From: a virus
Virus record (IMG/VR): IMGVR_UViG_3300009158_000001
Location: 110,108 to 174,107 of that record
Strand: one strand, 5' to 3'
DNA: 64,000 bases
Every line of letters starts with the position of its first letter. Position 1 is the stretch's first letter. The notes below the pieces were generated by a model that was not told the origin of the DNA, ran no database searches, and worked only from the letters and a program-made list of their open reading frames with translations. Made by a program: the position numbers and the translations under genes. Positions 3,499 to 24,103 of the stretch are shown here, piece by piece.

Positions 3499-4812
3499 TT
3501 ATTCATCATAGTCAAAGGGATCATCTTTATTATCTCTTATTAGACTATTAATCTTACTTAATGCAGCAGACATTTTTGTCATAGTTGAACTAACACTCTC
3601 AACCTTAGTAGACTCCATCTTAGCCTTAGCATTTAACTTGGCTTCTGGGGTGCTTAACAGTTCCTTCATTAGCTGACTGCGCATCTTTTGGAAACGTTCC
3701 TTTAACGCAAAAGCAGGATGTTCCTTCATCGCAGTCTTAACAGGATTGCCGTGTAAGTCGCTACTTAGTACAGCCTCCTGCATCAAGTCTCTACCCTCGC
3801 CAAGGCTATCTCCTTGACTTAATAGCATATTAACCCGGATCTCATAGATATCCAGTTCGGCAAGCTTAGTCGCCAAGCTAATAACACTAGGAGTAATATT
3901 ATTCATATCTCTAAAGTTCTCACTACAGTATTGCTTAACCTTAACCTGGAGAATACTTGCTTCTACGGGGCAAGGTTGCAGTACTGGGAATTTACTAGAG
4001 GCAAGATCAACACTTCCATTGTCTCTCTTAACAGCAAACCAGCATGAGCTGCGAATAGGGCAACTCTCATATCCTTTACATATTAAGGGCACACTAGCAT
4101 AAGTACCATGCTTAACAGCAGCAAGGTGCGACCTCATTCTAGCAGCACTCTGAGGTGTTATATGTAAGTCCTTATATAAGTCAGGATCACTACCAAGAAA
4201 AGTCCCAAGACTACTGTTAGAGAAGAAAGCATTAACATCTATAGTATTAGGATCACTGGCGTCTAAGGCACTCTGAAAAGCTTCCTTAAGACTGATACTC
4301 GTAGCACTACTTTGATCAAGAGGCTCAGCCCTCTCTAGTAAATCTAAGTCACTATCTAGTATCTCCCCCACCCTATCAAGTAGCACTTGTGTACTGGCCT
4401 CCACGCCGCCAAGACCATTAGTATTACGGTTCCCAGAGACCATACTAGAGTCCTTTAACAGGGGGCTAGTCTTAGTAAAGGACTTATCCTCACTGATAGA
4501 CATCTCCCTAGTAGGAAGGCCCTTTGCTGTCTCAGCTACGCTAATGTTAGTATCCTCTAAAGCCTGTAAGTCAAAAGGCATACCGTCTTCCTTAGGGGAA
4601 AACTCTAACGAGTTCCCCAAGGTGTATGGGTCAATAACTTGTCCAGATAACGTTCCAGTATAAGTAGGCTGAGAAAGCCGCGCCGCATTCTTATATAGAT
4701 TATCGGCTCCACGCCCTGCACTGTTGTCGTGGGAAGATCTAGGCTTCTTACCATTAGCCTTGTTTATATCATTGTAATGAGCCAAAACAGAGTACTTCTT
4801 ACTAGTAATCAA
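3499..4812 (-). CDS. Hypothetical protein, possible terminase small subunit (true start may be internal)
   Basis: 437-aa ORF with a Cys cluster PLICKGYESCPIRSSC..PCP. C-terminal KEHPAFALKERFQKMRSQLMKELLSTPEAK resembles the P27-type TerS signature (HPA...ELGLTP..R). Confidence 0.4.
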   Translation of the reverse strand: MITSKKYSVLAHYNDINKANGKKPRSSHDNSAGRGADNLYKNAARLSQPTYTGTLSGQVIDPYTLGNSLEFSPKEDGMPFDLQALEDTNISVAETAKGLPTREMSISEDKSFTKTSPLLKDSSMVSGNRNTNGLGGVEASTQVLLDRVGEILDSDLDLLERAEPLDQSSATSISLKEAFQSALDASDPNTIDVNAFFSNSSLGTFLGSDPDLYKDLHITPQSAARMRSHLAAVKHGTYASVPLICKGYESCPIRSSCWFAVKRDNGSVDLASSKFPVLQPCPVEASILQVKVKQYCSENFRDMNNITPSVISLATKLAELDIYEIRVNMLLSQGDSLGEGRDLMQEAVLSSDLHGNPVKTAMKEHPAFALKERFQKMRSQLMKELLSTPEAKLNAKAKMESTKVESVSSTMTKMSAALSKINSLIRDNKDDPFDYDE

Positions 4813-5161
4813 ACTAAAGTTTAAACTTTATTAACTTGATACCATAAGGAGCCTTATATATGTATAAGGACAAAACCTCTATATATATTTGGGGAAAAAA
4901 TCTAGGGGAAAAGCTAGGGGGAAAGGGGTATAGGTCTGGGAAAGACGTAGACTTGCCTAAAGAACTCTATATAGGTTTATATATTTATATTTTTATTTTT
5001 ATGGAAAAGAGTGGGTACTTTATATACTGGGACCCTTAAACAACCCATACCCCTATTCGTTTTAGCCCACCCCCTTTAAACGTAAAACTCTGACCGTTAG
5101 GGTGGGACATTGGGTTCCAAAAAGCCCTGCAATTGAGCAGGCACGCGTCTAGGAGTCTGCC

Positions 5162-11100: not shown

Positions 11101-14100
11101 TGCAAAGCTGCAGGGTAATTACTTCTTGGCTCAAACTGAGTTGGAAACTAGCCGCGCTGGTATTGCAGCCATTAGGCATACGATTGAGACGAGTGCTTAT
11201 ACGTCTCAAGAACTGTCTTCTGATTTGATTGAGGCCTTCAAAGAAGGTTACCAATGGATGAAGACTCCTGGTGGCTATCAGTTGGTTAGCGCAAGAAAAG
11301 CTGCAGCAAACCCAGAGAAGATTCTCAAGGGCGAAGCTCTTGCTGCTGTGCTGGATGCGTGGATCAAGACTGCCATTGACGTTCAGGCAGACTCTCTTCG
11401 CGCAGAGGGTGCGAAGATTGTGCGCAGGTACGAAGAAGCACTTCAGCTTCTGCTTCCTGGGTACAGCTGCAAGGTCAATGGTGAGGATTGTCTCATGGCT
11501 GCATACAATAAAGCAGAACATGCGAAAAAGACAGACCCCAGCAATCCTGAGATTGCCTTGCTTCTTGCAGCGTACTATGCGGAGTACGAGAAAGAGCAAG
11601 CGGAGTACGAGAATGAGCAAGCGAAAATCCAAGCGCGTTACGAGAAAACCCATAAGGAATGTCAGGAGTATGAGCAGCGCGTTAAGGAGCAGGAAGGATG
11701 GGATGAAATCCCGTTCTGTAAAGCAGGTGCCGTTCTTTCGGCATTGGCTCTTGCAGCTGGGCTTCCTGCCTTCGTGGTAGTGTTGCCGCTTGCACTGACG
11801 GCACTGGCTGCTTTCATGAAGATGGAAAACTCTGACGTTGAAGGTGAGGAGATCCTCGCTGACAATGCAGAGTTCTGCCTGTACAGTACACCAATTGTCC
11901 GTCACACAACAGGCAAGTGGACTGCAGTCAAAGACAACAACACTGGGGAATCCGCCCCAGTCGAAGCTGGCGAAAGCCAGAAGGAGAAGCCCATGAGCTT
12001 CCTTGACAAGATGAACCAGACCATCCGAAATGTCTGGAACGAGCTCACCGGCCGTGAGAGAATTGGTACTGACGTGAAGACCAAGGCACCTGCCACGTAC
12101 GGCTCTATCCTTGCTGCCAGCAAGGTTGAGCACACGGCACTTACCCGTATCTGCGGTGGTAAGATCCGTGAGATGCAAGTCACCGAACTCAGCAGTGAAG
12201 AGCTGCGTGAGATCAAAGACTTCATCCGCCGTGATGGTGACACCTGGATCATTGTCCGCGACTCTCAGAAGTTCCACTTCCCGAACTGGGCAATGGAGAA
12301 GCTGGTGTCTGAGATTGTGATTGCAGGTCACGCTGTCGACAAGAAGGTCAGCCAGCAGGAAGTGAATAAGTATTTCGGCAGCTTGCTTTGGGCTCCTGCT
12401 GAGATTGTTTCCTTCCAGGCTAGCGAAGCCAAGGTCATGAGTGATGGGCTTGCCGCCATGTACGACGGTACCAACCTGATGAGCGATGAGCTTGCATCGA
12501 CTATCGACTGGGTTGGCTATGCAATTCGTCGACTGCTTACGGTACTCGGCTTGTTCAAGGGTATGTTCATTATCCTTCCTGCTGGGTACTTCCCGTCTGG
12601 GGTCAAGCTATTCGGCAGTGAGGTGAAGAAGCACCTTCGTCTGCGTCGGGATAGCGGTCGTGCACTTGCACTGCAGCCTCAGGCTAACGGTCACAGTGAT
12701 GTGGCTAGGACTCTAGGCATGCAGCTTTGGTCCATGCTGTTGGGCCCCTGGATTGCTAGTGTTGGTTTTGCCAATCTAGCGAAGGGAGCGTACGGCTATG
12801 CAATGTCGAACCTGAACAAGGCTAATGAGCGTCTTCTTGCTCCTGCAGAGGAAGAAGAAGAAGGCCGCGATGCCTTGATGGCTGAGGCTAGCCGCCTGCA
12901 CGGGTTCAATCCAATTGCTGTATTCAGGTCTTTTGCGACCAGCATGGCAAACGGGCTCACGAAGTCCTTCAATCCCAACAAGGTGAACATTGCACCTGTT
13001 GACGAGAAGGGCAGAAGCCTTGTGCCAAACGGCTATCCGATGATGCTGCCTTGGCTTGCGCTGGCAGAGCTGTGGCTCAAGGTCACGGGCAAAGTGCCAG
13101 AAGAGCTTGCTAAGAAGGTTGAAGATACCGAAAAGCTTCGTCTGCGGCTCTTTAAGCTTGCGAACGGCGCAATTCCAGTGCTTGTGCACAACATGCACCG
13201 CCTTGATGCGGCTAAGGTTGCAGGCATTCGTCGCATGGCTATTGCTGCTATTGCGACTCGCATCCCGACTGGCAAGACCAGCGGTATCGAGGTTATGCTC
13301 TTCGACGCAGAAGAGTATGGGGCAGATCTACTGCCTGAGATCGTTGGCCGTAAGAAGAACGACATTGAGTTCTGGCTCTTCCCTTGCGAGGAGACCACGG
13401 CCTTCAAGGTTGCTTCTGAGGGCGGCGACGACGACGACCTGTACGAGTTCCTCCTGGGAATTCTGCACAAGCTGGCTCGCCTTGGCCTTGAGTGGCGGGC
13501 AAAGATCCTCGATGTGAGTGCCGATACGCAAAAGGCCATGGACGAAATCAAAGTTCGCTTTGCTCGTCAGGTGGCAGCATTCAAAGAAGACCGTAAGCTT
13601 CTTGCAAAGCTGATGGAGATGCCTTATGCAAAAGTCTTCACGGCAAATGGCAAGGTCAGGGCAGGCTGGCCGTCTCTCTTGGGTGTTACCATGGCACCAG
13701 GTGGATGGCAGATCCGTCACACGGAAGCTGTTGAAGATATCATCGTGATGACCGAGGAGTCCCGTGAAGATATCGCCACCCAGGCTCGCCTCTTTGCTGA
13801 GGTAATGACAGCAAACAACGACAGCCCGTTCACCAGCGCCATTGGCACTGTTGCGCAGAGCCACAAGTTTGCCACTGGCATCTTGACTGGAAACGTTGTG
13901 CTGACGAACAGTATCGGTGCTCTGGATAAGATCTGGGCACTCTTTGTTCTTGCTACCATTCTGCTGTCGGATATGGTAGACGCTTGCAACAAGGGCAAGA
14001 AGTACGCAGAGGCTGGTGCTGCACTCATGTACCTTAACTGGGCATGGGGCTGGCTGTGCTATCGTATTGCTAGCAATCCAGATGCTAAGGTTATCTGCCC

Positions 14101-16453
14101 TGCGCAGTATCTAGTATCTGTGCCTCCTGCTGCCAAAGAGCTGTTCAACGCACGTCATGCTAATAAGATGACTGTTGATGGCAAAGTTGTTCAGCCGGGC
14201 AAGCTTCTCAACAATCTCTATGAGAACCATAGAGAGCTTGGCGAGACGGTCGAGGCTATGATCCGCGAAGAGCACAACCGTGCTGAGTTCTCGGCTACGG
14301 TAACTGCGATGCTTCAGACTGTTAGCGTTCCTGTGCCTGGGGCTGCTTCTGCTCAGGGTATGGGCTCGGAAGTCTGGGCTGAAGTCTGGACTGCAAGCGG
14401 CCGCAAGAAGATCTACCTGGATGGTCTCAAGCAGAAGTCTGCTATGAGGTTCGAAGACATTCGGGCAGAGCAGCGTTACATGGCAGAACTCAACAATGCA
14501 ACCGTCTACGCAGCACATGCTGAGTTTGACCGTATTGTCATGGGTCGCCTTGTGAAAGCTGATCCTAACGCTACTAGTGAGGAGATTGCAGCTATGTTCA
14601 AGCTTTGCAAGCTTGGCATGGTCTACTCGTATGCTTTCAAGACTGTTGGCTACGAAGAGAACTGCGTCAAGATCCTTATGGATGAAGAGGGAGAGTTCGG
14701 CGCTTCTGGCGGCGTTCCTACCTACATCATCCCTGTCAGCGGCAACTGCACCTTTATCGGCAACTTTGCAGGTAGCAGCGAGATCCTCCTTGAGTGGATG
14801 ATGAATCCTGCTACACTCGCACTTGTTGCTGAGATCAAAGCCAAGGCTGGCGACTTCAAGTACGTCGTTCTCTCCATGAAGGGTGAAGCCTTTGGAGAGA
14901 TGATTGACGGCGGTCGTGACCTCAGGTACAGCGAGGCTGACTTTGATGGCAAATCCATCACGGAGATCCTCTGTATGCCTGGCGTTGCTCTTGCTGGCAA
15001 TCAGCGTGAAGAAAGCCACGTTGATCAGAGCACCTGGCTTGCAAGTGTAGCAGACACGGTCACGCAACGTCGCAACGACATTCTTCGCAAGCTGAAGGCG
15101 GAGAACAAAGCAGCAGAAGCATTGCTTCGCGGCAAGACTTTCGGAGAGCTTCTTCAGGAGTTCAACGTAACGGTCGTCGCAGAGTCCGTCACTGGCACTG
15201 CCAAGGTCGAAAAGATCGAGGCGTTCAAGTGGATGGACAAGAAGCATGCGGGTCGTACGTACCCAAACACCTTTGTCATTGTTCGCTTCGGGAATGAAGC
15301 AGATCCTGTGACTGAGGAGATGGAAGAGGATGATATTACCATCTTCCTTGCTGACGAAGTGATTGAGGCTGCTCCTGACACCAAGGAGAACATTACGATC
15401 GAGGCCTCTGCTCCTGTGGTTGAAAAGACTGCAGAAGCAAAAAAAGACAGCATAAGCGATAAGCTCAACCGCATCTTCGGCAAGAAGGAGGCTGTTAAGC
15501 CCCCTGCTCCTATCGAAGTCGTGCCTGCTGCTGTTGTTGCGGCTGCTACTGGACAAGAGGAGCTCAAGATCCTGAGCATTTCTGAGCCTGCCTTTGCGAA
15601 AGAAGGATGGTCCCAGACCAGCGAAGGAAAGCTTGTGCGCCGCACTTTCAGCAAGACCAAAGTCAAGGAAGTCTTTGCTGCTGGCTGGAACTTCTGCTTC
15701 TGCGAGGGCGATGGAGACAAGTGGGTCATTGCAGACACCCGCTTTGGTTTTGTCATTGGCCGCGGACAGACTCAGGTCATAGCGTTGCAAAGGGCAATTG
15801 CAAACACCCAGGCTGCTAAGGTTGGACGCAACCTTCTTGACGAAGTCCAGTTCTCGAACTGGCTCTTTGACCGTGCAACTCAGGCTCAGCGTCCGCTTGT
15901 TGACCTGATTGCAGAGCACAACAAGAAGGAAGAGCCCGTGGCCGAGGCAACTCCTGCTACTCCTGTTGTTGTCGCAGAGACTGCTGGTACTAAGCCTACT
16001 AGCCGTTGCGTTGGTAACTTCGCATTGGCTGGCCTTCAGCACTCTAGTAACGTCAATGTTGCTGAGCGTGAGCTTGTTGAGGGCGTAAAGATTACTCTCA
16101 TCCGCAATGTGGCTCACCCCAAGGATGCAAATGCCGTTGAGGTCCATGTGAATGGTTACCGCTTCGGGTATGTTCCTAAGGAAGCCGCTGCAAGGCTGGC
16201 TCCTCGGATGGACATCGGCGTGAAGGCGTGGGCCATTGTCACGGGATGGGAAAACGGGTACGCCCGCTTCGATCTGTTCCTTGGCAAGACGCCCACTACC
16301 TTGGAGACGTTCAACTACCAGCGTGACGAAATCGAGCGTGCATGCGAGGGGCTTGCCTGGCTGGAGTCGTACGACGCGACCGATGAACAGAAGGCTCCGG
16401 CTAATGCCCTCCTTGCGCACTTTGCTGCCCTTTGTGGTAGCCTTAAGCTCTGA
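5162..16453 (+). CDS. 3763-aa polyprotein-like ORF: membrane segments, two trypsin-like serine proteases, basic/coiled-coil and acidic regions, two-barrel RNA polymerase, HIRAN domain
   Basis: Open frame with SD AGGAG at 5151; domain motifs are listed in the sub-features; several in-frame internal SD+ATG sites. Confidence 0.85.
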   Translation: MTIALIVLAIFVCIVILSNTVSYLMTANKTAPITPAEVRMNNNNHPLIVLAIVTLVVIGGLVTFGIGKTAGLWAQPSFEDLVDPYAVAEYEQVALRITSFPHPGVGQYSPDEGTNCTGWAWKGHMYGITHCDVDTYIIGKETGETPDPVVRINTDHVVSVPVLGNDLYTVGMECSPDLRWWGATTGEWRNLDWSDIDVETFSPNNRAASLMLERWHGSVNRAQDALAQQNEYSASLYTNTALFQQGEWEILSKGQRYCYDSQDDVVGHGGWFRSGDSGGVLLAGDEPIGAVSYSNGSETRNCFSAIALSQEKSYQDFEFRELSSTTMDLTGKFKTAASHSGMQGRIFRSLNTETTNAHQGKENFMPYLILAILGLILAAATTTIKVKEFLMSNLRTIVIGFLIVLGLVVPIVLAWNHALTVCPVTDAWFSVNFMNGALVSIVVEMAAIAAVLAMATLISEMSCPKWMVKPILAITPNLATITANKAKESVMPIRLYIAIILTIAIFVPMALIATFREAFVCILGLGPLAFTAIDLILHVEYHYHVRELSIVTKKLIAHQKLHKLLFGGMALLAMVLGGCGDTIQQAPAGMGEIVAAHNGECSAFHWQGQIRTAAHCTYASTDWRDNATAVLHQQQGKHAIPEDLADIGQECSPDLRWWGATTGRTLPVEDVKFYAVKRGQNVWDLGEQVPPWTPGAQACFTQTLHNRFSDGDSGGPLLAGDEPVGSVSWSSNLPWGMACFGRLEKQPMWGNLSTSSPQGGKGFRMKSIEMTDSLAVTLTQVFTDLAIAGAILALAFLLARVRAKFRTHDETNAGNSAGLIGAKNPSKGHMSPILAFVARLTSVIVILLLGVCLLAAPGVTPLVSSNNSPTIETGIDPEAIAKIVQRLKKRLAYGMRMAKKKRWTVRRLNRWLVANGYKAKAKKAKKAVAKAVVKFDRAGMTRRQRRAKAHKAKVAATKAETKARGVKRRAEAKATNDAIAKLEAAIAFLGLIARVARHQRRMEVSAARSKRKVARKATAKPAAKKIIVRAEGAGRPTFHPRRSKVQGYNPAAQSRQEIITSREKREERRLAREARHLTLLNRAYAALLNMVVEGTAFKAGWTLRGACMLLADNMAWVAAQAEIQTFDQDDDVAWQYEAAVRNIPFEIKREVENAEVDAAWALIEANDKKVLAEIKQANAKARAKRKAEREERIATHRAKVDAERAEREAAKAVKAEERRKREMAKAERLVEALKAREAKKGKTTKVDVTPVSPVAKLREVQANSPVLAVVAGLGLATGMVAVAVIALAAIAFFAIRKNRAEDCKEETVDADWGDLLEAPAEPQPQSLLLRLTELLGQESPAREVVAYEPAPAPVTVPAEPEPQSLLGRLIELLPEAEARATEPATCACGIPQEEGYVCDTCVLNEYAAGMANALENAVEEFPFTDPGDWDGGAIDDVYAAQLMAADREAAQRDAADLEEHLQVLAAEAALADLDQEAEQDIDPLDLLVEKAKEEEMEEEKTPEQVWAEICNELTVSPRNYSANAAMNILIEMYQRKIDLFRFRHFGTTRTFTRKDKDGDRRTSKTKTLRKDVIVRFASILRQDKEMATWFAEASHDPSWEQFWVGIESLMKDKKQAWTAQDWRILRARYEAAVLVVNDLCIEFLGQSKSKPKFMASEVSCLVTKDTFRYRAVGAQEAMEACKRINAKHKGGFCVARGVYQEQMLSGSHLPWVVDKADGEGNWLEFGFVLTTSAGVADWGFGRENRNNSSVELKTATEMLGGIVQLDQYKPERAYIEMFHKNWTLMKKPSLNDWKTFIKTAFANGNMLFINPTTMDTRHVAKNGTSYSKSVTDNGTTASTVHTFFNDGSVTTVMTRKTLDANSKGFAHKFSSARTTIRKFFLKHSGIRDLKVLPWEVVESRDELATKFGNESYDQYQACRKAISADRNHRLDVVVLSRVNNARFEAWATEYVQNKQSSVVYHIKTRQPLTLSQLNKQNKALAKLQGNYFLAQTELETSRAGIAAIRHTIETSAYTSQELSSDLIEAFKEGYQWMKTPGGYQLVSARKAAANPEKILKGEALAAVLDAWIKTAIDVQADSLRAEGAKIVRRYEEALQLLLPGYSCKVNGEDCLMAAYNKAEHAKKTDPSNPEIALLLAAYYAEYEKEQAEYENEQAKIQARYEKTHKECQEYEQRVKEQEGWDEIPFCKAGAVLSALALAAGLPAFVVVLPLALTALAAFMKMENSDVEGEEILADNAEFCLYSTPIVRHTTGKWTAVKDNNTGESAPVEAGESQKEKPMSFLDKMNQTIRNVWNELTGRERIGTDVKTKAPATYGSILAASKVEHTALTRICGGKIREMQVTELSSEELREIKDFIRRDGDTWIIVRDSQKFHFPNWAMEKLVSEIVIAGHAVDKKVSQQEVNKYFGSLLWAPAEIVSFQASEAKVMSDGLAAMYDGTNLMSDELASTIDWVGYAIRRLLTVLGLFKGMFIILPAGYFPSGVKLFGSEVKKHLRLRRDSGRALALQPQANGHSDVARTLGMQLWSMLLGPWIASVGFANLAKGAYGYAMSNLNKANERLLAPAEEEEEGRDALMAEASRLHGFNPIAVFRSFATSMANGLTKSFNPNKVNIAPVDEKGRSLVPNGYPMMLPWLALAELWLKVTGKVPEELAKKVEDTEKLRLRLFKLANGAIPVLVHNMHRLDAAKVAGIRRMAIAAIATRIPTGKTSGIEVMLFDAEEYGADLLPEIVGRKKNDIEFWLFPCEETTAFKVASEGGDDDDLYEFLLGILHKLARLGLEWRAKILDVSADTQKAMDEIKVRFARQVAAFKEDRKLLAKLMEMPYAKVFTANGKVRAGWPSLLGVTMAPGGWQIRHTEAVEDIIVMTEESREDIATQARLFAEVMTANNDSPFTSAIGTVAQSHKFATGILTGNVVLTNSIGALDKIWALFVLATILLSDMVDACNKGKKYAEAGAALMYLNWAWGWLCYRIASNPDAKVICPAQYLVSVPPAAKELFNARHANKMTVDGKVVQPGKLLNNLYENHRELGETVEAMIREEHNRAEFSATVTAMLQTVSVPVPGAASAQGMGSEVWAEVWTASGRKKIYLDGLKQKSAMRFEDIRAEQRYMAELNNATVYAAHAEFDRIVMGRLVKADPNATSEEIAAMFKLCKLGMVYSYAFKTVGYEENCVKILMDEEGEFGASGGVPTYIIPVSGNCTFIGNFAGSSEILLEWMMNPATLALVAEIKAKAGDFKYVVLSMKGEAFGEMIDGGRDLRYSEADFDGKSITEILCMPGVALAGNQREESHVDQSTWLASVADTVTQRRNDILRKLKAENKAAEALLRGKTFGELLQEFNVTVVAESVTGTAKVEKIEAFKWMDKKHAGRTYPNTFVIVRFGNEADPVTEEMEEDDITIFLADEVIEAAPDTKENITIEASAPVVEKTAEAKKDSISDKLNRIFGKKEAVKPPAPIEVVPAAVVAAATGQEELKILSISEPAFAKEGWSQTSEGKLVRRTFSKTKVKEVFAAGWNFCFCEGDGDKWVIADTRFGFVIGRGQTQVIALQRAIANTQAAKVGRNLLDEVQFSNWLFDRATQAQRPLVDLIAEHNKKEEPVAEATPATPVVVAETAGTKPTSRCVGNFALAGLQHSSNVNVAERELVEGVKITLIRNVAHPKDANAVEVHVNGYRFGYVPKEAAARLAPRMDIGVKAWAIVTGWENGYARFDLFLGKTPTTLETFNYQRDEIERACEGLAWLESYDATDEQKAPANALLAHFAALCGSLKL
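5500..6080 (+). other. Trypsin-like serine protease domain 1 of the giant ORF
   Basis: CTG..GITHC (His, 5546-5554), GNDLY (Asp), GDSGG (5984-5998), then LLAGDEPIGAVS; preceded by a signal-anchor. Confidence 0.7.
6940..7390 (+). other. Trypsin-like serine protease domain 2 of the giant ORF, preceded by a lipobox-like LGGC
   Basis: CSA..TAAHC (6995-7009), EDLA (Asp), GDSGGPL (7292-7312), GSVSW; LGGC at 6887-6898 follows a basic and hydrophobic stretch. Confidence 0.8.
11993..15300 (+). other. Single-subunit double-psi-barrel RNA polymerase domain (YonO / cellular-RdRP-like); C-terminal boundary approximate
   Basis: Motifs in family order: YDGTNLMS (12461), FKGMF (12554), TRIP (13256), GGDDDD (13421-13438), AIG (13838), SDMVDACNKG (13967-13996). 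Has its own SD AAGGAG + ATG at 11993. Confidence 0.75.
16019..16285 (+). other. HIRAN domain at the C-terminus of the giant ORF
   Basis: FALAGLQH...ITLIRNVAHPKDANAVEV..GYRFGYVPKEAAARLAPRMD matches the HIRAN consensus. Confidence 0.85.
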
Positions 16454-16475
16454 GGTTACTATGAAGGAGATCCTC

Positions 16476-16733
16476 ATGAAGTACATGGGTGGTGCTAAGT
16501 ATCCTGGTCCTTGCCGCAATTGCAGCCGCTACTGTGGTTGTGATACACTGCGGCTCTTCCGAGATGACCGATATAAGGCAGCGAAGTGGGTCACAATCTG
16601 CACAGATTGCTGTGAAGAATGGGATGCCCGCTTCAACAAGCCCAAGGCCATTGTGGCTCCTCAACCTGCTCCTGTAAAGGAAGTGAAGGTTGTGGAAGTC
16701 GCTAAGCCAAAGCAACTTTCGTTGTTCGGCTAG
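16476..16733 (+). CDS. Small Cys-rich (zinc-finger-like) protein
   Basis: SD AAGGAG before ATG 16476 (alternative in-frame ATG at 16461); CRNC..CTDC. Confidence 0.6.
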   Translation: MKYMGGAKYPGPCRNCSRYCGCDTLRLFRDDRYKAAKWVTICTDCCEEWDARFNKPKAIVAPQPAPVKEVKVVEVAKPKQLSLFG

Positions 16734-16777
16734 AGAACTGACAGTTTGAACTAAAGCCCTATTCTACAACCCTTTTC

Positions 16778-16806
16778 AAAAGAGCTCACTTTGTGAGCTT
16801 TTTTTT
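16778..16806 (+). terminator. Intrinsic terminator
   Basis: AGCTCAC-TTT-GTGAGCT followed by a T-tract. Confidence 0.8.
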
Positions 16807-16897
16807 ACTACTTACTTACAGAGGCCAAACGACTCCGCTACTCCGCTCCCCCTCGAAAGCCTGTGTGTATTTTGTAATTTCTGCACCCCCTTGGAGA

Positions 16898-16912
16898 GGC
16901 TCCTGCGTCGCC
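16898..16912 (+). promoter_or_regulatory. Hairpin motif copy 1 (putative phage-RNAP promoter)
   Basis: GGC-TCCTGCGTC-GCC. Confidence 0.65.
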
Positions 16913-16970
16913 CAGAGCATTGTAGGCTTCGCTCCCTGGCAACAAAGCTAGACCAACGAGAGGTCTGGTG

Positions 16971-16987
16971 GGCCTCCTGCGTCGGCC
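16971..16987 (+). promoter_or_regulatory. Hairpin motif copy 2
   Basis: GGCC-TCCTGCGTC-GGCC. Confidence 0.65.
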
Positions 16988-16989
16988 AG

Positions 16990-17152
16990 ATATAGTGAGC
17001 GTTCACGCTTGCTATACTGGCGGATCCGTCCCAGTAGATGCGAGAGATAACGGATAGGTACCTCCCAAACGTCTACCTTGTCGGGTGTGGGAAGGCCGAA
17101 AACGCTGACAAGGAAAGAACCTCTGGCCTCACGGCTGGGGGTTCTTTTTTTT
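16990..17152 (+). ncRNA. Putative structured small RNA ending in an intrinsic terminator
   Basis: No credible ORF. Stems TATAGTGAGCG/CGCTTGCTATA and CCTTGTCGG/CTGACAAGG; terminator at 17115-17152. Confidence 0.45.
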
Positions 17153-17201
17153 CCACTCCGCTGAATAACCAGATAACTTGTGGCAACCAGGGGTCTTACG
17201 A

Positions 17202-17216
17202 GGCTCCTTCGTCGCC
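17202..17216 (+). promoter_or_regulatory. Hairpin motif copy 3
   Basis: GGC-TCCTTCGTC-GCC. Confidence 0.65.
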
Positions 17217-17219
17217 CAA

Positions 17220-17457
17220 AGCATCGGATGGTGGCTGCCGCTACCCGTATCAGAGAAGGCCTGTCGGTCTCTGGTATGTATCAGACAGGGGCGGTTGCCA
17301 GTCCGCCTAACAGAAAAACTGGCCGTCATCCCCTTTAGGATGGCATGTTTACGTCCCCTCTTGGACGGGTTCCTGGTAGTGGTAATCCTACTTACTGCGT
17401 ACCAGGATAGAGAGGTAAAGCCCCAGCACAGTAGGATGTGTTGGGGTTTTATTTTTG
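17220..17457 (+). ncRNA. Putative structured small RNA ending in an intrinsic terminator
   Basis: No SD-led ORF. Stems CCTGTC/GACAGG, GCCAGT/ACTGGC, GCCGTC/GATGGC, TCCTGGTA/TACCAGGA; terminator at 17417-17457. Confidence 0.45.
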
Positions 17458-17508
17458 TTACTCCGCTATATAAGTAGATTACTAGTAACTATATAGTGGT
17501 TTGTTGGC

Positions 17509-17523
17509 GGCTCCTACGTCGCC
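17509..17523 (+). promoter_or_regulatory. Hairpin motif copy 4
   Basis: GGC-TCCTACGTC-GCC. Confidence 0.65.
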
Positions 17524-17526
17524 CAA

Positions 17527-17674
17527 AGCACTGGGCGTTGACGCTCTGCCATCTCCGTTGGTAGAGACTAGCTTTAAAACACGGGGAGTCCCAGGTCGGC
17601 CTTACGGGCTTGGATAAGACTATTGGCAGAAGGACAGATTCCCACTACTAGGCCGGTAGTGGGTTTCTTTTTTT
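17527..17674 (+). ncRNA. Putative small RNA ending in an intrinsic terminator
   Basis: No SD-led ORF; terminator CCCACTAC/GTAGTGGG + T-tract at 17641-17674. Confidence 0.4.
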
Positions 17675-17692
17675 GGCCTCCTTCGTCGGCCA
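17674..17692 (+). promoter_or_regulatory. Hairpin motif copy 5
   Basis: TGGCC-TCCTTCGTC-GGCCA. Confidence 0.65.
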
Positions 17693-17736
17693 GAGATTAT
17701 GAGGCACTTTCGCCTCTCGGTCCTTAGGAGGACACC

Positions 17737-17949
17737 ATGAAGGCAGGTAAGTATCACTCGTACGACTGGCGAACCGAGCGGGATGCGGATGCTGATAGGA
17801 GCGTCTTCGTCCAGGCCTGGAAAGCCAAGTTCCCTGGGGTCGTGCCGCAGTTCGCCATCATCCTGGATGACGGCAGTTGCCACTGGTGGAACGAATGGCC
17901 AGACGGGCGGACTCGGCGGCTTCCGCCTAGCACATTCAAGATCGGCTAA
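17737..17949 (+). CDS. Hypothetical protein (70 aa)
   Basis: SD TAGGAGG; lies between motif copy 5 and a terminator. Confidence 0.75.
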   Translation: MKAGKYHSYDWRTERDADADRSVFVQAWKAKFPGVVPQFAIILDDGSCHWWNEWPDGRTRRLPPSTFKIG

Positions 17950-17955
17950 AGATAG

Positions 17956-17987
17956 ACCCTCGGCTTCGGTTGGGGGTTTTTCTTTTC
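17956..17987 (+). terminator. Intrinsic terminator with C-UUCG-G loop
   Basis: ACCCTCGGC-TTCG-GTTGGGGGT + T-tract. Confidence 0.8.
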
Positions 17988-18126
17988 TCACTCCGCTACA
18001 CAGTGGGGTGGCTCCAGCTCCCGGACTCTTCGGCGGTCAGCAGGTAGGAACCCAATAGCAAAAAGAGGCGAAAAAATATAGACTCCGCTATAGGCCGGAA
18101 AGGTTATATCAACTAGTAGTGTTGAG

Positions 18127-18141
18127 AGCTCCTGCGTCGCC
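18127..18141 (+). promoter_or_regulatory. Hairpin motif copy 6
   Basis: AGC-TCCTGCGTC-GCC. Confidence 0.6.
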
Positions 18142-18144
18142 TAA

Positions 18145-18408
18145 GTGTTGTGAGGTAATCGCGGACCTCTTAGTCATGTTCCAACCCTGGGGAGCATGAT
18201 GAGCCTAGTTAGACAAGGCAAAACGAACAAAGGGAGTAGGTGTCCATCCGCCGAAGTTAAGAGCACCTGTACGCGGGACTCGGGATGGAACTCATGTGCT
18301 GGATCTCCTAAGGAGGCACATGTTTAAACAGAAGAGGGGATGACCTGCGCATGTCACAAAACTGCCCCAATTTTAACCCTCTGGCTTCGGTCGGAGGGTT
18401 TTTCTTTT
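18145..18408 (+). ncRNA. Putative structured RNA ending in an intrinsic terminator
   Basis: Stems GAGGT/ACCTC, CATGTTCC/GGAGCATG, TCCATCC/GGATGGA; UUCG terminator at 18376-18408; only a 6-codon SD-led micro-ORF. Confidence 0.4.
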
Positions 18409-18426
18409 GGCCTCCTGCGTCGTCCA
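18408..18426 (+). promoter_or_regulatory. Hairpin motif copy 7
   Basis: TGGCC-TCCTGCGTC-GTCCA. Confidence 0.6.
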
Positions 18427-18466
18427 GAGAAAGTGGGCAACTTTCGCCCCAAACGGAGAAGAGAAC

Positions 18467-18646
18467 ATGCAGTACGATCTTACAGTGACACAAAGCCCCA
18501 GCGGACTCGTATACTTTCGGGTATACAGCAAAGAGACCGGTGATTGCAAGTGCATCCTGAGCATCGACCCCAAGGACGGGTCTCTCGAGGCGGCAACGGG
18601 TGACGAGGAGTTCACGGGCTACTCCATCGTTGGAGAACTCGTCTAA
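18467..18646 (+). CDS. Hypothetical protein (59 aa)
   Basis: SD GGAG before ATG 18467 (MQYDLTV...). Confidence 0.65.
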   Translation: MQYDLTVTQSPSGLVYFRVYSKETGDCKCILSIDPKDGSLEAATGDEEFTGYSIVGELV

Positions 18647-18650
18647 GAGA

Positions 18651-18680
18651 GACCCTGGCTTCGGCTGGGGTTTCTTTTTT
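18651..18680 (+). terminator. Intrinsic terminator with C-UUCG-G loop
   Basis: GACCCTGGC-TTCG-GCTGGGGTT + T-tract. Confidence 0.8.
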
Positions 18681-18682
18681 CA

Positions 18683-18697
18683 GGCTCCTTCGTCGCC
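18683..18697 (+). promoter_or_regulatory. Hairpin motif copy 8
   Basis: GGC-TCCTTCGTC-GCC. Confidence 0.65.
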
Positions 18698-18740
18698 CAA
18701 GGAAAATGGGTAATGTCACCCTTCCTTTACGGAGTCGAAG

Positions 18741-19145
18741 ATGAACAGTGTCAATTTTGTCGGGTTTCTTACTTCCACCCATAAGGAAGTGGGCGATGTC
18801 CTCTGTGTCGTCGTGAAGAGTGTCGATGGGAACAGTGCTCCCACTGTGCGTTTCACGGGCAAGCAGCGTGAGGCTCTCAAGAAGTGGGGCACCCCCGGAC
18901 GTCTTGTGAGCATCAGTGGCAGCTTCGGAACGGAGGTGAATGGCAAGGTGAAGGACTCCTTCATCGCCTGCGCCTACAGCCGTTTCTTGGACAAGCAGGA
19001 GACTGTGGCTAAGGCTGCTGCTCCTGTTGCGGCACCTGTCGTGGCTGCTGCACCTGTCAAGGCTGCAAAGGCTCCCAAGGCTGCAAAGGCCACAAAGGCT
19101 GCTCCTCCCGCGAATGTCGATCCTGACGACGTTCCGTGGGCGTAA
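18741..19145 (+). CDS. Divergent SSB-like OB-fold protein
   Basis: MNSVNFVGFLT start, GRLVSISGSF strand, Ala/Lys/Pro linker and acidic tail DPDDVPWA. Confidence 0.6.
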   Translation: MNSVNFVGFLTSTHKEVGDVLCVVVKSVDGNSAPTVRFTGKQREALKKWGTPGRLVSISGSFGTEVNGKVKDSFIACAYSRFLDKQETVAKAAAPVAAPVVAAAPVKAAKAPKAAKATKAAPPANVDPDDVPWA

Positions 19146-19147
19146 CT

Positions 19148-19180
19148 AACCCCTGGCTTCGGCTGGGGGTTCTTTTTCTT
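19148..19180 (+). terminator. Intrinsic terminator with C-UUCG-G loop
   Basis: AACCCCTGGC-TTCG-GCTGGGGGTT + T-tract. Confidence 0.8.
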
Positions 19181-19271
19181 GACTCCGCTATGGGCCGGTG
19201 CAGTTCCAGCTCCGAGACGTCTGGCGGCTGTCAGGGAGAAGACCATCATCAAAAAGAGGCGAAAATAAATG

Positions 19272-19286
19272 GGCTCCTGCGTCGCC
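19272..19286 (+). promoter_or_regulatory. Hairpin motif copy 9
   Basis: GGC-TCCTGCGTC-GCC. Confidence 0.65.
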
Positions 19287-19327
19287 TAGGTACAGTGAGG
19301 GTTTGTCCTCGTTGCCAGGAGTCTGTC

Positions 19328-19468
19328 ATGTTTGAGAAAGTGTCGCTTGAAGACTGTTACGGTATCGCTGTGGGTGGTGAGGACGAGATGATCGCCCGCA
19401 TCGACGAGGCCAATGAGTACGTGTACAACCACGATGAGTTGGATGACTTCGACTACAGCGAAGGTTGA
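19328..19468 (+). CDS. Small acidic protein (46 aa)
   Basis: AGGAGTCTGTC-ATG start; terminator at 19470-19498 follows. Confidence 0.65.
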   Translation: MFEKVSLEDCYGIAVGGEDEMIARIDEANEYVYNHDELDDFDYSEG

Positions 19469-19509
19469 AGAGATGGCCCGAAAGGGTCTTTTCTTTTCTA
19501 AGACAAAGG

Positions 19510-19526
19510 GGCCTCCTGCGTCGGCC
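19510..19526 (+). promoter_or_regulatory. Hairpin motif copy 10
   Basis: GGCC-TCCTGCGTC-GGCC. Confidence 0.65.
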
Positions 19527-19529
19527 ATA

Positions 19530-19970
19530 TGTCTTGAGTCTCGGCTCTACAGTTTACGGCGTCGAGTAGGTTACATTGCGAATAATAGGGGATGTAAACC
19601 CTATTGCTCGTACTGCAAGACGTCATCCTTTGAGAGTTTACTAGTAAAATCATAAGTGCGCCTGCCGCTTATGGGAACCTAGTGAGAGTCAGGGTTGCAA
19701 ACCTGGCTATAACAAATAGGCTGACTATTATGGGACCCTGCCCTGGTAGTTATATGAACATGGGGTGGTCTGCTGCAGCGGGCCTTTGATCAGTCGGGTG
19801 TTCGCTATACAGATACTGAACGGGTGACCACGCCCACAGTTGAGTGCAAGGCTCAGCAATTAGGATTCCTACGAGAAGGGTTCAATCCCCTTTTTCATCG
19901 GCCACATGCCATGTAGGGTTCAGTATCAGCGCAATGTATGGCTATGGGTTCGAGTCCCATATGATTGAAT
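19530..19970 (+). ncRNA. Putative ~440-nt multi-stem RNA or structured leader with two T-loop hairpins
   Basis: No SD-led ORF. Nested stems GTCTTG/CAAGAC, AATAGGG/CCCTATT, CATAAG/CTTATG, AGTCAG/CTGACT; T-loop-like GGTTCAATCC (19879) and GGTTCGAGTCC (19947). Confidence 0.45.
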
Positions 19971-19998
19971 TACTTTACACCGTCCTAAGGAGGACAAC

Positions 19999-20577
19999 AT
20001 GGATAAGAGCATGATCTTCAATTTCAATACCGTTGTCTTGTTTGCGACCGAGATCGCCAAGAGGATGAACTTCCTGGGATACGATACGACCTACAGCGTC
20101 TCTATGACCGAGTTCAGTGGCCCGACCATCTCGGCTGCCATCAGGGGCAACACCGAGAAAGAAGGGTGGTACATTGTGGAGCACGGGATGTTCCATGATG
20201 CGCACAAAGGCTTCGAGGTCAATTTCACGATTGGCCTCCCCAGCGCAGAGGGTGAGTACATCTCCGAGTGGGTGAAGGCCAAGATCAACAGGATCCGCCT
20301 CCGTGACTGCTTGGAGATCAACGAGACCCTGTACTCCGTTCCGACTCTGGAAGTTTACTCGGAGCGGTTTGGAGGGACGTATGCTTTCTACAGTGCAATC
20401 CCCACCTTGACGAAACACTTCGACTTCACGGTCAAGAACGTCAAGGGTGACATGGATGGCCTCATCGATCTGTTCTGGGGACAGAAGGGCCTCCTCAGCA
20501 AGATTGAAGACCCCGACTGTGCAATCGAAGAGTTCAACAACCTCCTGGTTGAGTTGGGCGATTCTGTCTCGTCCTAG
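19999..20577 (+). CDS. Hypothetical protein (192 aa)
   Basis: SD AAGGAGG; open frame. Confidence 0.8.
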   Translation: MDKSMIFNFNTVVLFATEIAKRMNFLGYDTTYSVSMTEFSGPTISAAIRGNTEKEGWYIVEHGMFHDAHKGFEVNFTIGLPSAEGEYISEWVKAKINRIRLRDCLEINETLYSVPTLEVYSERFGGTYAFYSAIPTLTKHFDFTVKNVKGDMDGLIDLFWGQKGLLSKIEDPDCAIEEFNNLLVELGDSVSS

Positions 20578-20732
20578 TAGTCCAATAGGTCCACAGCCTG
20601 CAACCTGCCCGTTGGTAGGCTAACCTATCAGATGTCATGTCTGGTAGCCACAAAGGCTGCATCACTTCCTTATGGTAATAGATAGGTTCGAATCCTATCA
20701 GGAAGACTTTACCCCCTTATATAGGTGACAAG

Positions 20733-20936
20733 ATGAAACATGTGCCCGGACATAGTTCGATGGATGAGCAGGCTATGGAGACTGTAATCTCTCATGGGAA
20801 GTTTCTTCTTGAGAGAGCAAATGCAGTACTACATTTATATCCCCAGCTCCAAGAGTATAGGGATGCACTGGTAGAGATGCAGAAGTATGCCGAGAAGGCA
20901 ATGGATAATGGACACTTCCCCGATTCCGACCTCTAA
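20733..20936 (+). CDS. Hypothetical protein
   Basis: SD AGGT; operon-like packing. Confidence 0.65.
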   Translation: MKHVPGHSSMDEQAMETVISHGKFLLERANAVLHLYPQLQEYRDALVEMQKYAEKAMDNGHFPDSDL

Positions 20937-20954
20937 CGTCCTTAGGAGGACACC

Positions 20955-21137
20955 ATGCGAATAAAGCATAACATTATCGTTACGTGGAAAGATTGTGACA
21001 AGGGGTGCTGCGAGGACTATAGGGTATTCCAGTTCTCTGGTAGTCCCGGACAGGCAATTAGGTTTTCCCAAGAGGTAGCAAAACTTCATCCTACTACATT
21101 CCGTATTAGGATCTATCAATACGACAACGAGGAATAA
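20955..21137 (+). CDS. Hypothetical protein
   Basis: SD TAGGAGG. Confidence 0.7.
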   Translation: MRIKHNIIVTWKDCDKGCCEDYRVFQFSGSPGQAIRFSQEVAKLHPTTFRIRIYQYDNEE

Positions 21138-21139
21138 TC

Positions 21140-21598
21140 ATGAATATGAATACCGTTGAGGATATGCACAAGATCTTGAGAATCCTGGATGCCGAAGTAG
21201 CAAAGAGGAAGATTCCTTTTGATGTGATTCCAGAGAGAACAGCGGCGGAGTATCGTGCCCTGGCCGAAGACCATGAAGAGTATGTTGCTCTTCTTGCAAG
21301 AGAGAGGAAGGTAATCAATGCCTACTTCAATGCCGTTCAGATGCAGGAGTGGGCACAGAACCACAAGCGCTGGATACAGACGGGATTGAACGGTTATACT
21401 ACCCATGAGTTGAGCCCTGTTGGCAAAGAGACCCTGAACAGATACCTCAACAAAGTAGTTGAGGAAATCTGGTGGGATGCCAATGAGGACCGTCTTGTGA
21501 CAGAATTCGAAAGTTCCCGCCAGTACCTCGGCGATGATGATCGCAACTTTGAGTGGTACATCAACAGGGAATATGAAACTTACCTTCAAACCCTCTAA
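21140..21598 (+). CDS. Hypothetical protein (152 aa)
   Basis: SD GAGG; adjacent to the previous stop. Confidence 0.75.
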   Translation: MNMNTVEDMHKILRILDAEVAKRKIPFDVIPERTAAEYRALAEDHEEYVALLARERKVINAYFNAVQMQEWAQNHKRWIQTGLNGYTTHELSPVGKETLNRYLNKVVEEIWWDANEDRLVTEFESSRQYLGDDDRNFEWYINREYETYLQTL

Positions 21599-21609
21599 CA
21601 GGAAAAACA

Positions 21610-21783
21610 ATGAAAATGATACCTGTTGATCTTTGGATGAACTTTGATGGATGGCTAGACGAAAACTACGATCTTCTTGATAAGGAGTTCGTTGAGATCT
21701 ATGGAAAGGATGGATCAAGTAAAGACTTTGGCCAGTTCGCTGCAAGTAAACACAATGAATACTGTGAATCCCTTAAGAAGTAA
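21610..21783 (+). CDS. Hypothetical protein (57 aa)
   Basis: Read by hand (MKMIPVDLW...); SD AGGA; fills the gap between neighbours. Confidence 0.6.
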   Translation: MKMIPVDLWMNFDGWLDENYDLLDKEFVEIYGKDGSSKDFGQFAASKHNEYCESLKK

Positions 21784-21793
21784 GAGGTGTACT

Positions 21794-21958
21794 GTGAATA
21801 AGTTTATCAATGTGACTGTCCGCGTTCCTACGTCCAACATCGTAATCAGTGAGTCTCATGACGACATTGATACTGCGATGTGTAGGGGAGAAATTCTGTC
21901 TAAGGCCTTGGGCGGTTCTTGGACTATGACCTTCAATGCTAACCAGGTCAAGATCTAA
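21794..21958 (+). CDS. Hypothetical protein
   Basis: SD GAGGT + GTG start. Confidence 0.55.
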   Translation: MNKFINVTVRVPTSNIVISESHDDIDTAMCRGEILSKALGGSWTMTFNANQVKI

Positions 21959-22024
21959 TGGTCTGGTATACTTGGCAATTTCGTTTCTTCCTTGCCTTTT
22001 GGCAACTTTACCTGTGAGGTTATA

Positions 22025-23409: not shown

Positions 23410-23428
23410 TAGCCTCCTGCGTCGGCTA
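23410..23428 (+). promoter_or_regulatory. Hairpin motif copy 12
   Basis: TAGCC-TCCTGCGTC-GGCTA. Confidence 0.65.
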
Positions 23429-23493
23429 GATGTCGTGCTATTGTGTCCTATTCAATAAGTTTCCTTCGATAAGAAGGGTAAGTGAGAGTTGTC

Positions 23494-23955
23494 ATGAAAG
23501 ATAAGAATCGTGTTGAACTTCGTGGTCGTCTTGGTGCAGATCCTATTCTCTCTACTACGGAGACCGGACGTAGTCGGACTAGCCTTCGTCTCTGTACTAA
23601 TTACGAGTATAAGACTGCTGATGGTACGGAAGTAAAGAACTCCGAGTGGCACACTATCGTTGTCTGGGGTAAGGCTGCCGAGAACGCAGTCAAGTACCTG
23701 TCAAAGGGTAGTGAAGCAGAGGTCGAGGGTCGTCTTCAGTCCCGTAAGTACACGGACAAGGCGGGAGTTGAGCGTTACACTACGGAGATCGTGGCGAACG
23801 AGATCAACTATGGTCGTCGTCCTACTGCTAAGACTGCAGAGGAAGCGGCCCCAGCTGCTCAGGCCAGTCCTGTTCAGCGTACTACGGTTCGTCGCCGAGA
23901 GAATGAGGTTACTGCTTCTAGTAACTTTCAGTCTGATGACGAGATTCCGTTCTAG
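23494..23955 (+). CDS. ssb: Single-stranded DNA-binding protein
   Basis: NRVELRGRLGADP, EWHTIVVWGKAAE, KGSEAEVEGRLQSRKYTDK, YTTEI, C-terminal DDEIPF. Confidence 0.95.
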   Translation: MKDKNRVELRGRLGADPILSTTETGRSRTSLRLCTNYEYKTADGTEVKNSEWHTIVVWGKAAENAVKYLSKGSEAEVEGRLQSRKYTDKAGVERYTTEIVANEINYGRRPTAKTAEEAAPAAQASPVQRTTVRRRENEVTASSNFQSDDEIPF

Positions 23956-23983: not shown

Positions 23984-24058
23984 GTGCCCGTAGCACAGTT
24001 GGATAGTTGCAACGGCCTTCTAAGCCGTAGGTCACTGGTTCAAGTCCAGTCGGGCACA
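23984..24058 (+). tRNA. tRNA-Arg(TCT)
   Basis: Acceptor GTGCCCG/CGGGCAC; anticodon arm ACGGC-CTTCTAA-GCCGT; T-loop TTCAAGT. Confidence 0.92.
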
Positions 24059-24103
24059 CTTTCCCCAAACGCTCTATATTCTAGAGTACAACATGAGAGG
24101 TAT

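Follow-up and report, generated by a model that had tools for sequence, protein, structure and literature searches.

What kind of gene fills DNA that carries repeated start- and stop-like signals and little coding sequence? The question is raised by a locus in the IMG/VR virus record IMGVR_UViG_3300009158_000001 (G000; 174,107 bp, with repeated ends), of which we analyzed one 64,000-nucleotide (nt) stretch, bases 110108-174107. This stretch is referred to here as the window, and positions are window positions unless stated otherwise. Directly 3' of a giant open reading frame (ORF), a first-pass annotation had placed an array of promoter-RNA-terminator cassettes and read it as a battery of early small RNAs. 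As it had described, four units (U1 to U4) start at copies of one motif, lack conserved ORFs and end in G+C-rich hairpins followed by T runs. The interpretation we favor, with some reserve, is that U1 to U4 are autonomous genes for structured non-coding RNAs (ncRNAs), transcribed by the phage RNA polymerase (RNAP), probably early, and acting in trans.

Cassette anatomy and a promoter-like element

The cassettes of the array share one build: a short element, a 5' stem-loop, a body and an intrinsic terminator. The element consists of the loop TCCTNCGTC within a 3-bp covarying inverted repeat and has 15 copies genome-wide. The elements and non-coding units, together with a structured module within U2, are as follows.

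16898..16912, + strand: promoter-like element P0, GGC-TCCTGCGTC-GCC, in tandem with element P1
16972..16986, + strand: promoter-like element of U1 (element P1)
16987..17152, + strand: U1, non-coding, ~166 nt, terminator at 17116-17152
17202..17216, + strand: promoter-like element of U2
17217..17457, + strand: U2, non-coding, ~241 nt, terminator at 17421-17457
17247..17324, + strand: tandem H-type pseudoknot module of U2, from a covariance model and pairing statistics
17509..17523, + strand: promoter-like element of U3
17524..17674, + strand: U3, non-coding, ~151 nt, terminator at 17641-17674
18127..18141, + strand: promoter-like element of U4
18142..18408, + strand: U4, non-coding, ~267 nt, terminator at 18375-18408

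Exact matches to CTCCTNCGTCG number 15 in the window, each on the + strand, versus 1.6 in shuffled sequence even when one mismatch is allowed, and no other copy was found on the reverse strand, in the rest of the 174-kb genome or in the control. Ten of these copies lie within 16900-19513, and the remaining five head distant operons (23219, 23414, 25381, 33593 and 56991). Across 53 distinct copies from eight sources (the window and seven related contigs), the 9-nt core TCCT[T/G/A]CGTC shows no variation and the closing pair of the stem is fixed as C-G. At the second pair, 17 copies have G-C and 29 have C-G, at the third 47 have G-C, and a fourth 'pair' is purine/pyrimidine only, with no covariation. 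An A follows four bases 3' of the stem, and about eight bases further a TG opens the 5' stem-loop, which varies in sequence from cassette to cassette and is present in the array cassettes but absent at the dispersed copies. In coding cassettes, the element lies ~38-75 nt 5' of ORFs led by a Shine-Dalgarno (SD) sequence.

Successive elements are 74 to 734 nt apart, each interval amounting to a full cassette. There is no regular spacing of identical repeats, so that neither a CRISPR-like array nor a repeat decoy fits the locus. The first interval, from P0 to the next element, spans 74 nt with no terminator between, and the same pair of elements, again 74 nt apart, is kept in the related contig L010. 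The annotation had listed the intervening 16913-16970 as a short unit of its own; given that it has neither a terminator nor a folding signal (z-score -0.3), it is better read as part of a tandem promoter feeding U1, an arrangement also known for phage LUZ7 (PMC9163698).

Terminator-like sites are in excess over the region 13-22 kb (16 versus 7.6 +/- 2.7 expected from shuffles), the strong ones falling at unit ends. In several cassettes the element abuts the T run of the preceding terminator, which leaves no space for another promoter between the two. A bipartite sigma-type promoter was considered, since the phage has a sigma-70 family gene, and was set aside, as neither the 12 nt tabulated upstream nor the 30-40 nt of 5' context inspected for each copy holds a conserved hexamer.

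Could the element act in RNA instead, as a processing site, an anti-terminator or an anti-SD hairpin within one long read-through transcript of which the units are processed pieces? That every unit closes with a strong hairpin and T run speaks against such a transcript, as do the element copies heading distant operons, where no transcript from an upstream array would be expected. The loop does hold CCTCC, complementary to the AGGAGG SD of the coding cassette C1 (described below), stem pairs 3 and 4 include G-T combinations, and extensive terminator read-through is known from LUZ7 (PMC9163698). However, the core is invariant well beyond CCTCC, and units without any ORF also carry the element. 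We therefore regard an RNA-level signal as unlikely and prefer to see the element as a candidate promoter.

Coding capacity and RNA structure of U1 to U4

The relatives used for comparison, labeled L009-L023 and, for two IMG/VR records, G001 and G002, amount to about nine distinct contigs. These came mostly from protein look-ups and from one DNA pattern; the protein-based scans yielded one IMG/VR record and one JGI contig, further IMG/VR pattern scans gave no additional record, and blastn of the array against the phage GenBank collection gave no match.

U1 to U4 are non-coding: no candidate frame in them is conserved. U3 has no ORF of at least 20 amino acids (aa), and U1 has no SD-led ORF, only 20- and 28-aa frames starting with GTG or TTG. 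The SD-led frame of U2 (17345-17410) has four extra nucleotides inserted in L011 and is missing from L010. In U4, the only sizeable ORF, an SD-led frame of 42 aa (18199-18327), is disrupted by 1-nt indels in L017, and an SD-led frame of seven codons (18320-18343) has lost its ATG in L020. With candidate frames broken by indels or deprived of their starts in relatives, a small-peptide reading of the units was rejected.

The nucleotide sequences of the same units are highly conserved. In outline, relatives retain U2 to U4 at 84-94% nucleotide identity, although their RNAPs are 32-68% identical. U1 is 86% identical to its sole homolog (L010:8838-9024); U2 is 93% identical to its counterpart in L011, with related units in L010, L013, L014, L016, L017, L022 and L023; U3 is 94% identical to L011 and 81% to L014; and U4 is 92.5% identical to L017, L018 and L019. 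The values for U2, U3 and U4 compare with 51-68% protein identity of the RNAP in the cassette-bearing relatives and with 65% to 87% nucleotide identity of the coding cassettes.

The best-supported structure is the module in U2. Its first hairpin has a 7-bp helix, P1, and a loop, CCTGTC, that pairs with GACAGG ~16 nt downstream (PK1). The second hairpin follows directly, with a 5-bp helix, P2 (GGCGG/CCGCC), and a loop, CCAGT, that pairs with ACTGG past an A-rich linker (PK2). With a covariance model of the two hairpins (R1), nine good matches in seven contigs and one weak match were recovered. In the resulting alignment, 95.9% of cells pair, versus 38-46% when the partners are slid, and eight pairs are altered on both sides, a level reached in none of 500 shuffles; this alignment was fitted to the hairpins and so is biased towards them, while the two pseudoknot helices lie outside the model. 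In a separate MAFFT alignment of 13 copies, PK1 is paired in 72 of 72 cells, or 100% in 12 distinct copies, including the variant CCCATC/GATGGG in L013 and L016, which probably reflects one evolutionary event. In the covariance-model alignment, PK2 is paired in 88%, with CCAG/CTGG replaced by CCAA/TTGG. The loop-to-downstream pairing of an H-type pseudoknot is thus kept through sequence change. The commonest closing pair of P2 is G-U, which indicates that the structure is selected in a + strand RNA rather than in duplex or minus-strand DNA.

The four helices could stack coaxially. Tandem H-type pseudoknots are known from the pseudoknots of transfer-messenger RNA (tmRNA) and from the upstream pseudoknot domain of tobamovirus 3' untranslated regions. 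The U2 module resembles these in its consecutive loop-to-downstream pairings, possible coaxial stacking and A-rich third loop, a likeness of architecture only.

The structured character that the first-pass annotation had given to all units held best for U2, with its compensatory changes and a fold z-score of -3.9 without and -6.1 with the terminator. The nested-fold signal is weak in the others when the terminator is left out (U1 -1.9, or -3.9 with it; U3 -0.9; U4 -1.2). U1 has a 5' stem-loop and a hairpin loop, ATCCGT, that matches a downstream ACGGAT, as read directly from the sequence; both are identical in L010, so there is no covariation to see. Informative differences in U3 and U4 are few, and all keep the predicted pairs: substitutions in U3 preserve pairing through G-U, and U4 has two pairs with compensatory changes (CATGTGC/GCACATG versus TATGCGC/GCGCATA). 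The units are built of recurring modules, and the high nucleotide conservation, frame-breaking indels, and compensatory and G-U changes bear out the proposal of non-coding structured RNA genes, with selection on structure at the RNA level.

Cassette exchange among related phages

U1, U2 and U3 are consecutive, with no gene between them, and are followed by C1, U4, C2 and C3. The interleaved one-gene cassettes C1 to C3, each with an SD and a terminator, have the build that had been attributed to them, and the remaining features of the array are these.

17155..17162, + strand: ACTCCGCT, one of seven + strand array copies (16832, 16840, 17155, 17460, 17990, 18082 and 19182)
17676..17989, + strand: coding cassette C1, with element, 5' stem-loop, SD, 70-aa ORF (17737-17949) and terminator
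17990-18128: spacer of ~140 nt between C1 and U4
18410..18681, + strand: coding cassette C2, same build, 59-aa ORF (18467-18646)
18683..19180, + strand: coding cassette C3, same build, 134-aa ORF (18741-19145)
ORF ending at 19468: small cassette after C3
Start at 19513: long unit, the last of the array

The contigs of relatives, found through homologs of the polymerase or of the C1 protein (P0009-P0012), share the element and the cassette build and differ in cassette order. The order U1-U2-U3-C1-U4 seen here is replaced in L011 by U2, a hybrid unit (U4b, the 5' part of U4 joined to a U2-type module), U3 and C1, and in L017 by a two-module U2-like unit, C1 and U4. The unit 5' of C1 is U3 in the window and in L011 and a U2-like unit in L017, so that no unit has a fixed partner gene. 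The cassettes, and modules within them, have been reshuffled among these phages, and the exchangeability that the first-pass annotation had surmised was borne out. Because of this reshuffling, the high identity of the units is not creditable to purifying selection alone.

These arrangements bear on whether the units without ORFs serve the cassette downstream in cis, as leaders of the attenuator, riboswitch-like sensor or stability-element kind. Each unit is an aptamer-like pseudoknot followed by a terminator, as such a leader might be, and a pseudoknot-like module and long structure occur in the 470-nt leader of ORF 19999. Yet each cassette downstream begins with its own copy of the element right behind the terminator, the unit 5' of a given gene differs between phages, and three units stand in a row without an intervening gene. 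We thus consider a leader function quite improbable and retain the interpretation of the units as genes in their own right.

At L020:504-1213, the 5' part of U4 is followed by ~460 nt with a terminator, ACTCCGCT, a degenerate element and a 60-aa ORF, and then by the 3' terminator of U4; a coding cassette has here been inserted into, or recombined with, U4. This arrangement, the interleaving of the units with small-ORF cassettes of the same build, and decayed copies of the element at 18956 and 19889 would suit the view that the units are decayed coding cassettes, tiny-peptide genes or sites acting at the DNA level (ejection stop, origin or packaging, for example). Sequences of that kind would not be expected to show nucleotide identity equal to or above that of the coding cassettes, nor compensatory and G-U-preserving changes on the + strand, and the candidate ORFs are not conserved. 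We hold this view to be very unlikely.

The most distant comparison comes from a remote sub-clade, G001 (146 kb) and G002, found by an IMG/VR pattern scan, in which the RNAP core is 32% identical. Their units start at an altered element, AGGC-TCGCTGCGCTC-GCCT, with a 4-bp stem and an 11-nt loop, and keep the U2 module at 88% identity over 98 nt. A start signal that has changed together with the polymerase, while the RNA body has not, is the pattern expected of a promoter and an RNA gene.

Several further features of the array were observed. ACTCCGCT occurs eight times in the window, the eighth copy on the - strand, versus 1.4 expected; of the seven + strand array copies, five come straight after the T run of a terminator. 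The motif is conserved in relatives and resembles a shorter form of the promoter-like core. Homologous spacers of ~90-140 nt (17990-18128 and 19182-19273) lead from a terminator to the next element, with the order ACTCCGCT...CCAGCTCC...GGCGG...AAAAAGAGGCGAAAA; they are 83% identical to L011:18324-18460 and have no folding signal (z-score +1.3). The C3 protein ends in an Ala/Lys/Pro-rich tail encoded by tandem 9-nt and 18-nt repeats (19016-19100), and a similar tail is found in the L023 homolog.

The long unit comprises a 470-nt ORF-less stretch, 19513-19998, that leads from an element copy to ORF 19999-20577 (z-score -3.6); either a fifth ncRNA or a leader with structure could lie here. A pseudoknot-like module is weakly matched by the covariance model in the homologous leaders of L017, G001 and G002. 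The stretch contains a decayed element copy (19889-19913) and two perfect T-arm-like hairpins, AAGGG-TTCAATC-CCCTT at ~19877 and ATGGG-TTCGAGT-CCCAT at ~19944. Two poor tRNA-like folds at 19814-19969, outside U1 to U4, appear under relaxed ARAGORN settings only.

On a larger scale, the giant ORF and the array occupy a sharp-edged compositional island (window 4000-22000, genome 114-132 kb) with 51-55% G+C, versus 32-44% elsewhere in the genome in 6-kb bins. The genome seemingly has a direct terminal repeat of ~120 bp (G000 1-123 and 173985-174107), its length being estimated from a short match found twice, at 72-87 and 174056-174071. Overlap in the assembly of a circular or permuted genome may account for it, so these coordinates need not reflect where the array sits relative to the physical ends.

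A two-barrel RNA polymerase and the proposed role of the RNAs

Which enzyme would read these units? The first-pass annotation had called the gene preceding the array an RNAP gene.

5162-16453, + strand: giant ORF, 3763 aa, directly 5' of the cassette array
12299..14311, + strand: predicted two-barrel RNAP core, aa 2380-3050 of the 3763-aa ORF, from an AlphaFold2 (AF2) model, Foldseek and conserved motifs

Searches of the giant protein against Pfam, PHROGs and PDB sequences returned HIRAN (a domain at its C-terminus), YpsA and DprA only, with no RNAP match; hidden Markov model searches of the RNAP against PDB sequences found none either, and a PF00940 search was without a match, as were its controls. 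We turn to structure. The AF2 model of aa 2380-3050, built from an alignment of 18 sequences with distant homologs included, has a pLDDT (predicted local distance difference test score) of 88.8; it replaces an earlier model from seven sequences (pLDDT 47.8), which was discarded. The top Foldseek match is QDE-1 (E 1.4e-6, probability 1.00). Other matches are P32 gp64 (probability 0.99), P74 gp62, plant RDR2, P23-45 gp96 and gp66 of the crAss-like phage phi14:2, with 6vr4 also among them. The modeled fold has the double-psi beta-barrels of the single-chain two-barrel RNAPs (QDE-1, YonO, crAss gp66 and P23-45 gp96). The motifs RxP, GGDxDD and SDxVDA..KG are invariant or nearly so across the alignment, and the predicted catalytic loop, GGDxDD (GGDDDD here), seems unusual in that its third Asp is one position off compared with DxDxD. 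Model and motifs support the presence in the giant ORF of a two-barrel RNAP of the QDE-1/crAss gp66 type, and on the Foldseek placement and the conserved motifs the label 'RNAP gene' stands. Relatives of the polymerase part are few. Directly 3' of the giant ORF lies an ORF of 90 aa (16461-16733) that is kept in L009, L010 and L017 and has no Pfam family.

QDE-1 and the virion RNAP (vRNAP) of phage N4 depend on single-strand binding proteins. It is thus suggestive that the dispersed element copy at 23414 lies 58 nt 5' of a gene for a single-strand binding protein (23482-23955; Pfam SSB, E 5e-28), which is directly followed by a tRNA-Arg gene (23984-24059).

Taken together, these features would fit the following course of events. 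Each unit would start at its phage-specific promoter-like element, the 9-nt core TCCT[T/G/A]CGTC in its 3-bp covarying inverted repeat; the transcript would open with a stem-loop and stop at the intrinsic terminator, giving a structured ncRNA of ~150-270 nt. The two-barrel RNAP encoded upstream within the giant polyprotein would transcribe the units. In crAss-like phages and P23-45 such an enzyme enters along with the DNA, and the same probably holds here, in which case the RNAs would be present before any phage protein can be made. Working in trans, they would then bind proteins or serve as decoys during host takeover or counter-defence. The promoter role, the entry of the RNAP and the early trans-acting RNAs are proposed by analogy with phi14:2, P23-45 and N4, and also because every unit starts and stops at signals of its own and none is tied to a particular gene.

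These three systems resemble the array in different respects. In phi14:2, whose RNAP is of the same class and likewise a single-chain two-barrel enzyme inside a giant protein, two very abundant early long ncRNAs of unknown function are made; they are intergenic and already highly expressed when sampling begins (Drobysheva et al., bioRxiv 10.1101/2020.03.07.982082). No early promoter motif was found for phi14:2 in the part of the preprint consulted, whereas a sharp element marks every unit here; the RNAs here are also short, terminator-bounded, arrayed and modular, and their expression is inferred. No sequence relation between the two sets of RNAs was seen, though no test was aimed at it. P23-45 gp96 is again a two-barrel RNAP fused into a giant protein, there a virion protein. 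P23-45 has phage-specific promoter motifs before its pre-early genes and two enzymes, the virion RNAP gp96 and the non-virion RNAP gp64; its motifs are linear and AT-rich or GC-rich, unlike the element described here, and the part of the preprint consulted reports no ncRNA array (bioRxiv 10.1101/2022.12.01.518664). N4 and LUZ7 (Schitoviridae) share with our phage a phage-specific element with a covarying stem, in co-oriented clusters before short cassettes that are early in N4 and LUZ7 (PMC9163698). Their early hairpin promoters, used by the injected vRNAP, combine a stem of 4 bp or more with a conserved loop of 3 nt, and the N4 enzyme is T7-like, in contrast to the 3-bp stem, conserved 9-nt loop and two-barrel fold found here, so the element does not belong to the N4 type.

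Searches for a known identity or target of the RNAs were negative. The Rfam comparison proposed at the outset (Rfam 15) gave no family at its gathering threshold in the array; only tRNAs elsewhere in the window pass, and the best match in 16700-20000, to NsiR1, reaches 26.3 bits versus a threshold of 39 and lies on a terminator. ARAGORN at default settings gives no tRNA or tmRNA in 16.7-20.1 kb, and a pattern for the pseudoknot module has no match in 185,579 prokaryote genomes. The suggested sponge role, in its CsrA/RsmA form, was dropped, since GGA is not enriched (22 in 825 nt versus 15.7 +/- 3.4 in shuffles, with 19 in 798 nt of coding cassettes).

An antisense role had likewise been proposed, and the units might be base-pairing regulators, antisense or seed-type, of host or phage mRNAs. 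The predicted anatomy, an element taken as promoter plus a Rho-independent terminator, fits a trans-acting small RNA gene, and a conserved purine-rich single strand, GATAGAGAGGTAAAG, precedes the terminator of U2. In a search that covered the phage genome, however, the units have no complement longer than 13 nt, a chance level (E ~0.3-0.5), and it is whole structured modules that are conserved rather than a short seed. We give base-pairing little weight. For U1 to U4 as trans-acting RNA genes, the most economical guess at function is a protein-binding or decoy RNA working before translation.

Several points weigh against this interpretation. Promoter function, start sites and timing are predictions from sequence, and a 3-bp stem with a 9-nt loop would be a weak hairpin on its own. 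A sigma-70 family protein encoded outside the window (G000:C1:14910-15119; 373-aa frame, Sigma70_r2 E 7e-21) makes another holoenzyme conceivable for the array, although it probably serves a later transcription class. Comparative support is good for the U2 module only, U1 having one homolog and U3 and U4 few informative changes, and the nucleotide identity may partly reflect recent cassette exchange, C1 also being 87% identical to its L011 copy. The pseudoknot-like modules in the 470-nt leader of ORF 19999 leave room for a role in cis, and none of these analyses gives a pointer to a target of U1 to U4.

Early ncRNAs in a phage of this RNAP class were already known from phi14:2 (bioRxiv 10.1101/2020.03.07.982082). 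New here are the element, with its sharp definition, an array in which each RNA cassette runs from promoter to terminator, and a pseudoknot module that persists between phages with polymerases as little as 32% identical. A bolder possibility, which we raise tentatively and think more doubtful than the basic interpretation, is that U1 to U4 form a new class of translation-independent 'first-minute' effectors. These would be pseudoknotted aptamer-like RNAs, made by an injected two-barrel RNAP from a new type of promoter, each neutralizing a host protein (a defense sensor, nuclease or RNA-metabolism factor) before translation and traded among phages as promoter-to-terminator cassettes.

If transcription is confirmed, the element would be a sharp, testable promoter candidate for a virion-type two-barrel RNAP; for phi14:2, the best-studied example, no early promoter motif could be identified according to the part of its preprint consulted. 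The array would also add several structured RNAs outside Rfam, among them a tandem pseudoknot better conserved than its presumed polymerase, and may explain the early long ncRNAs of crAss-like phages. It would suggest that the first products deployed by some large phages are RNAs and not proteins, which bears on how host defenses are pre-empted.

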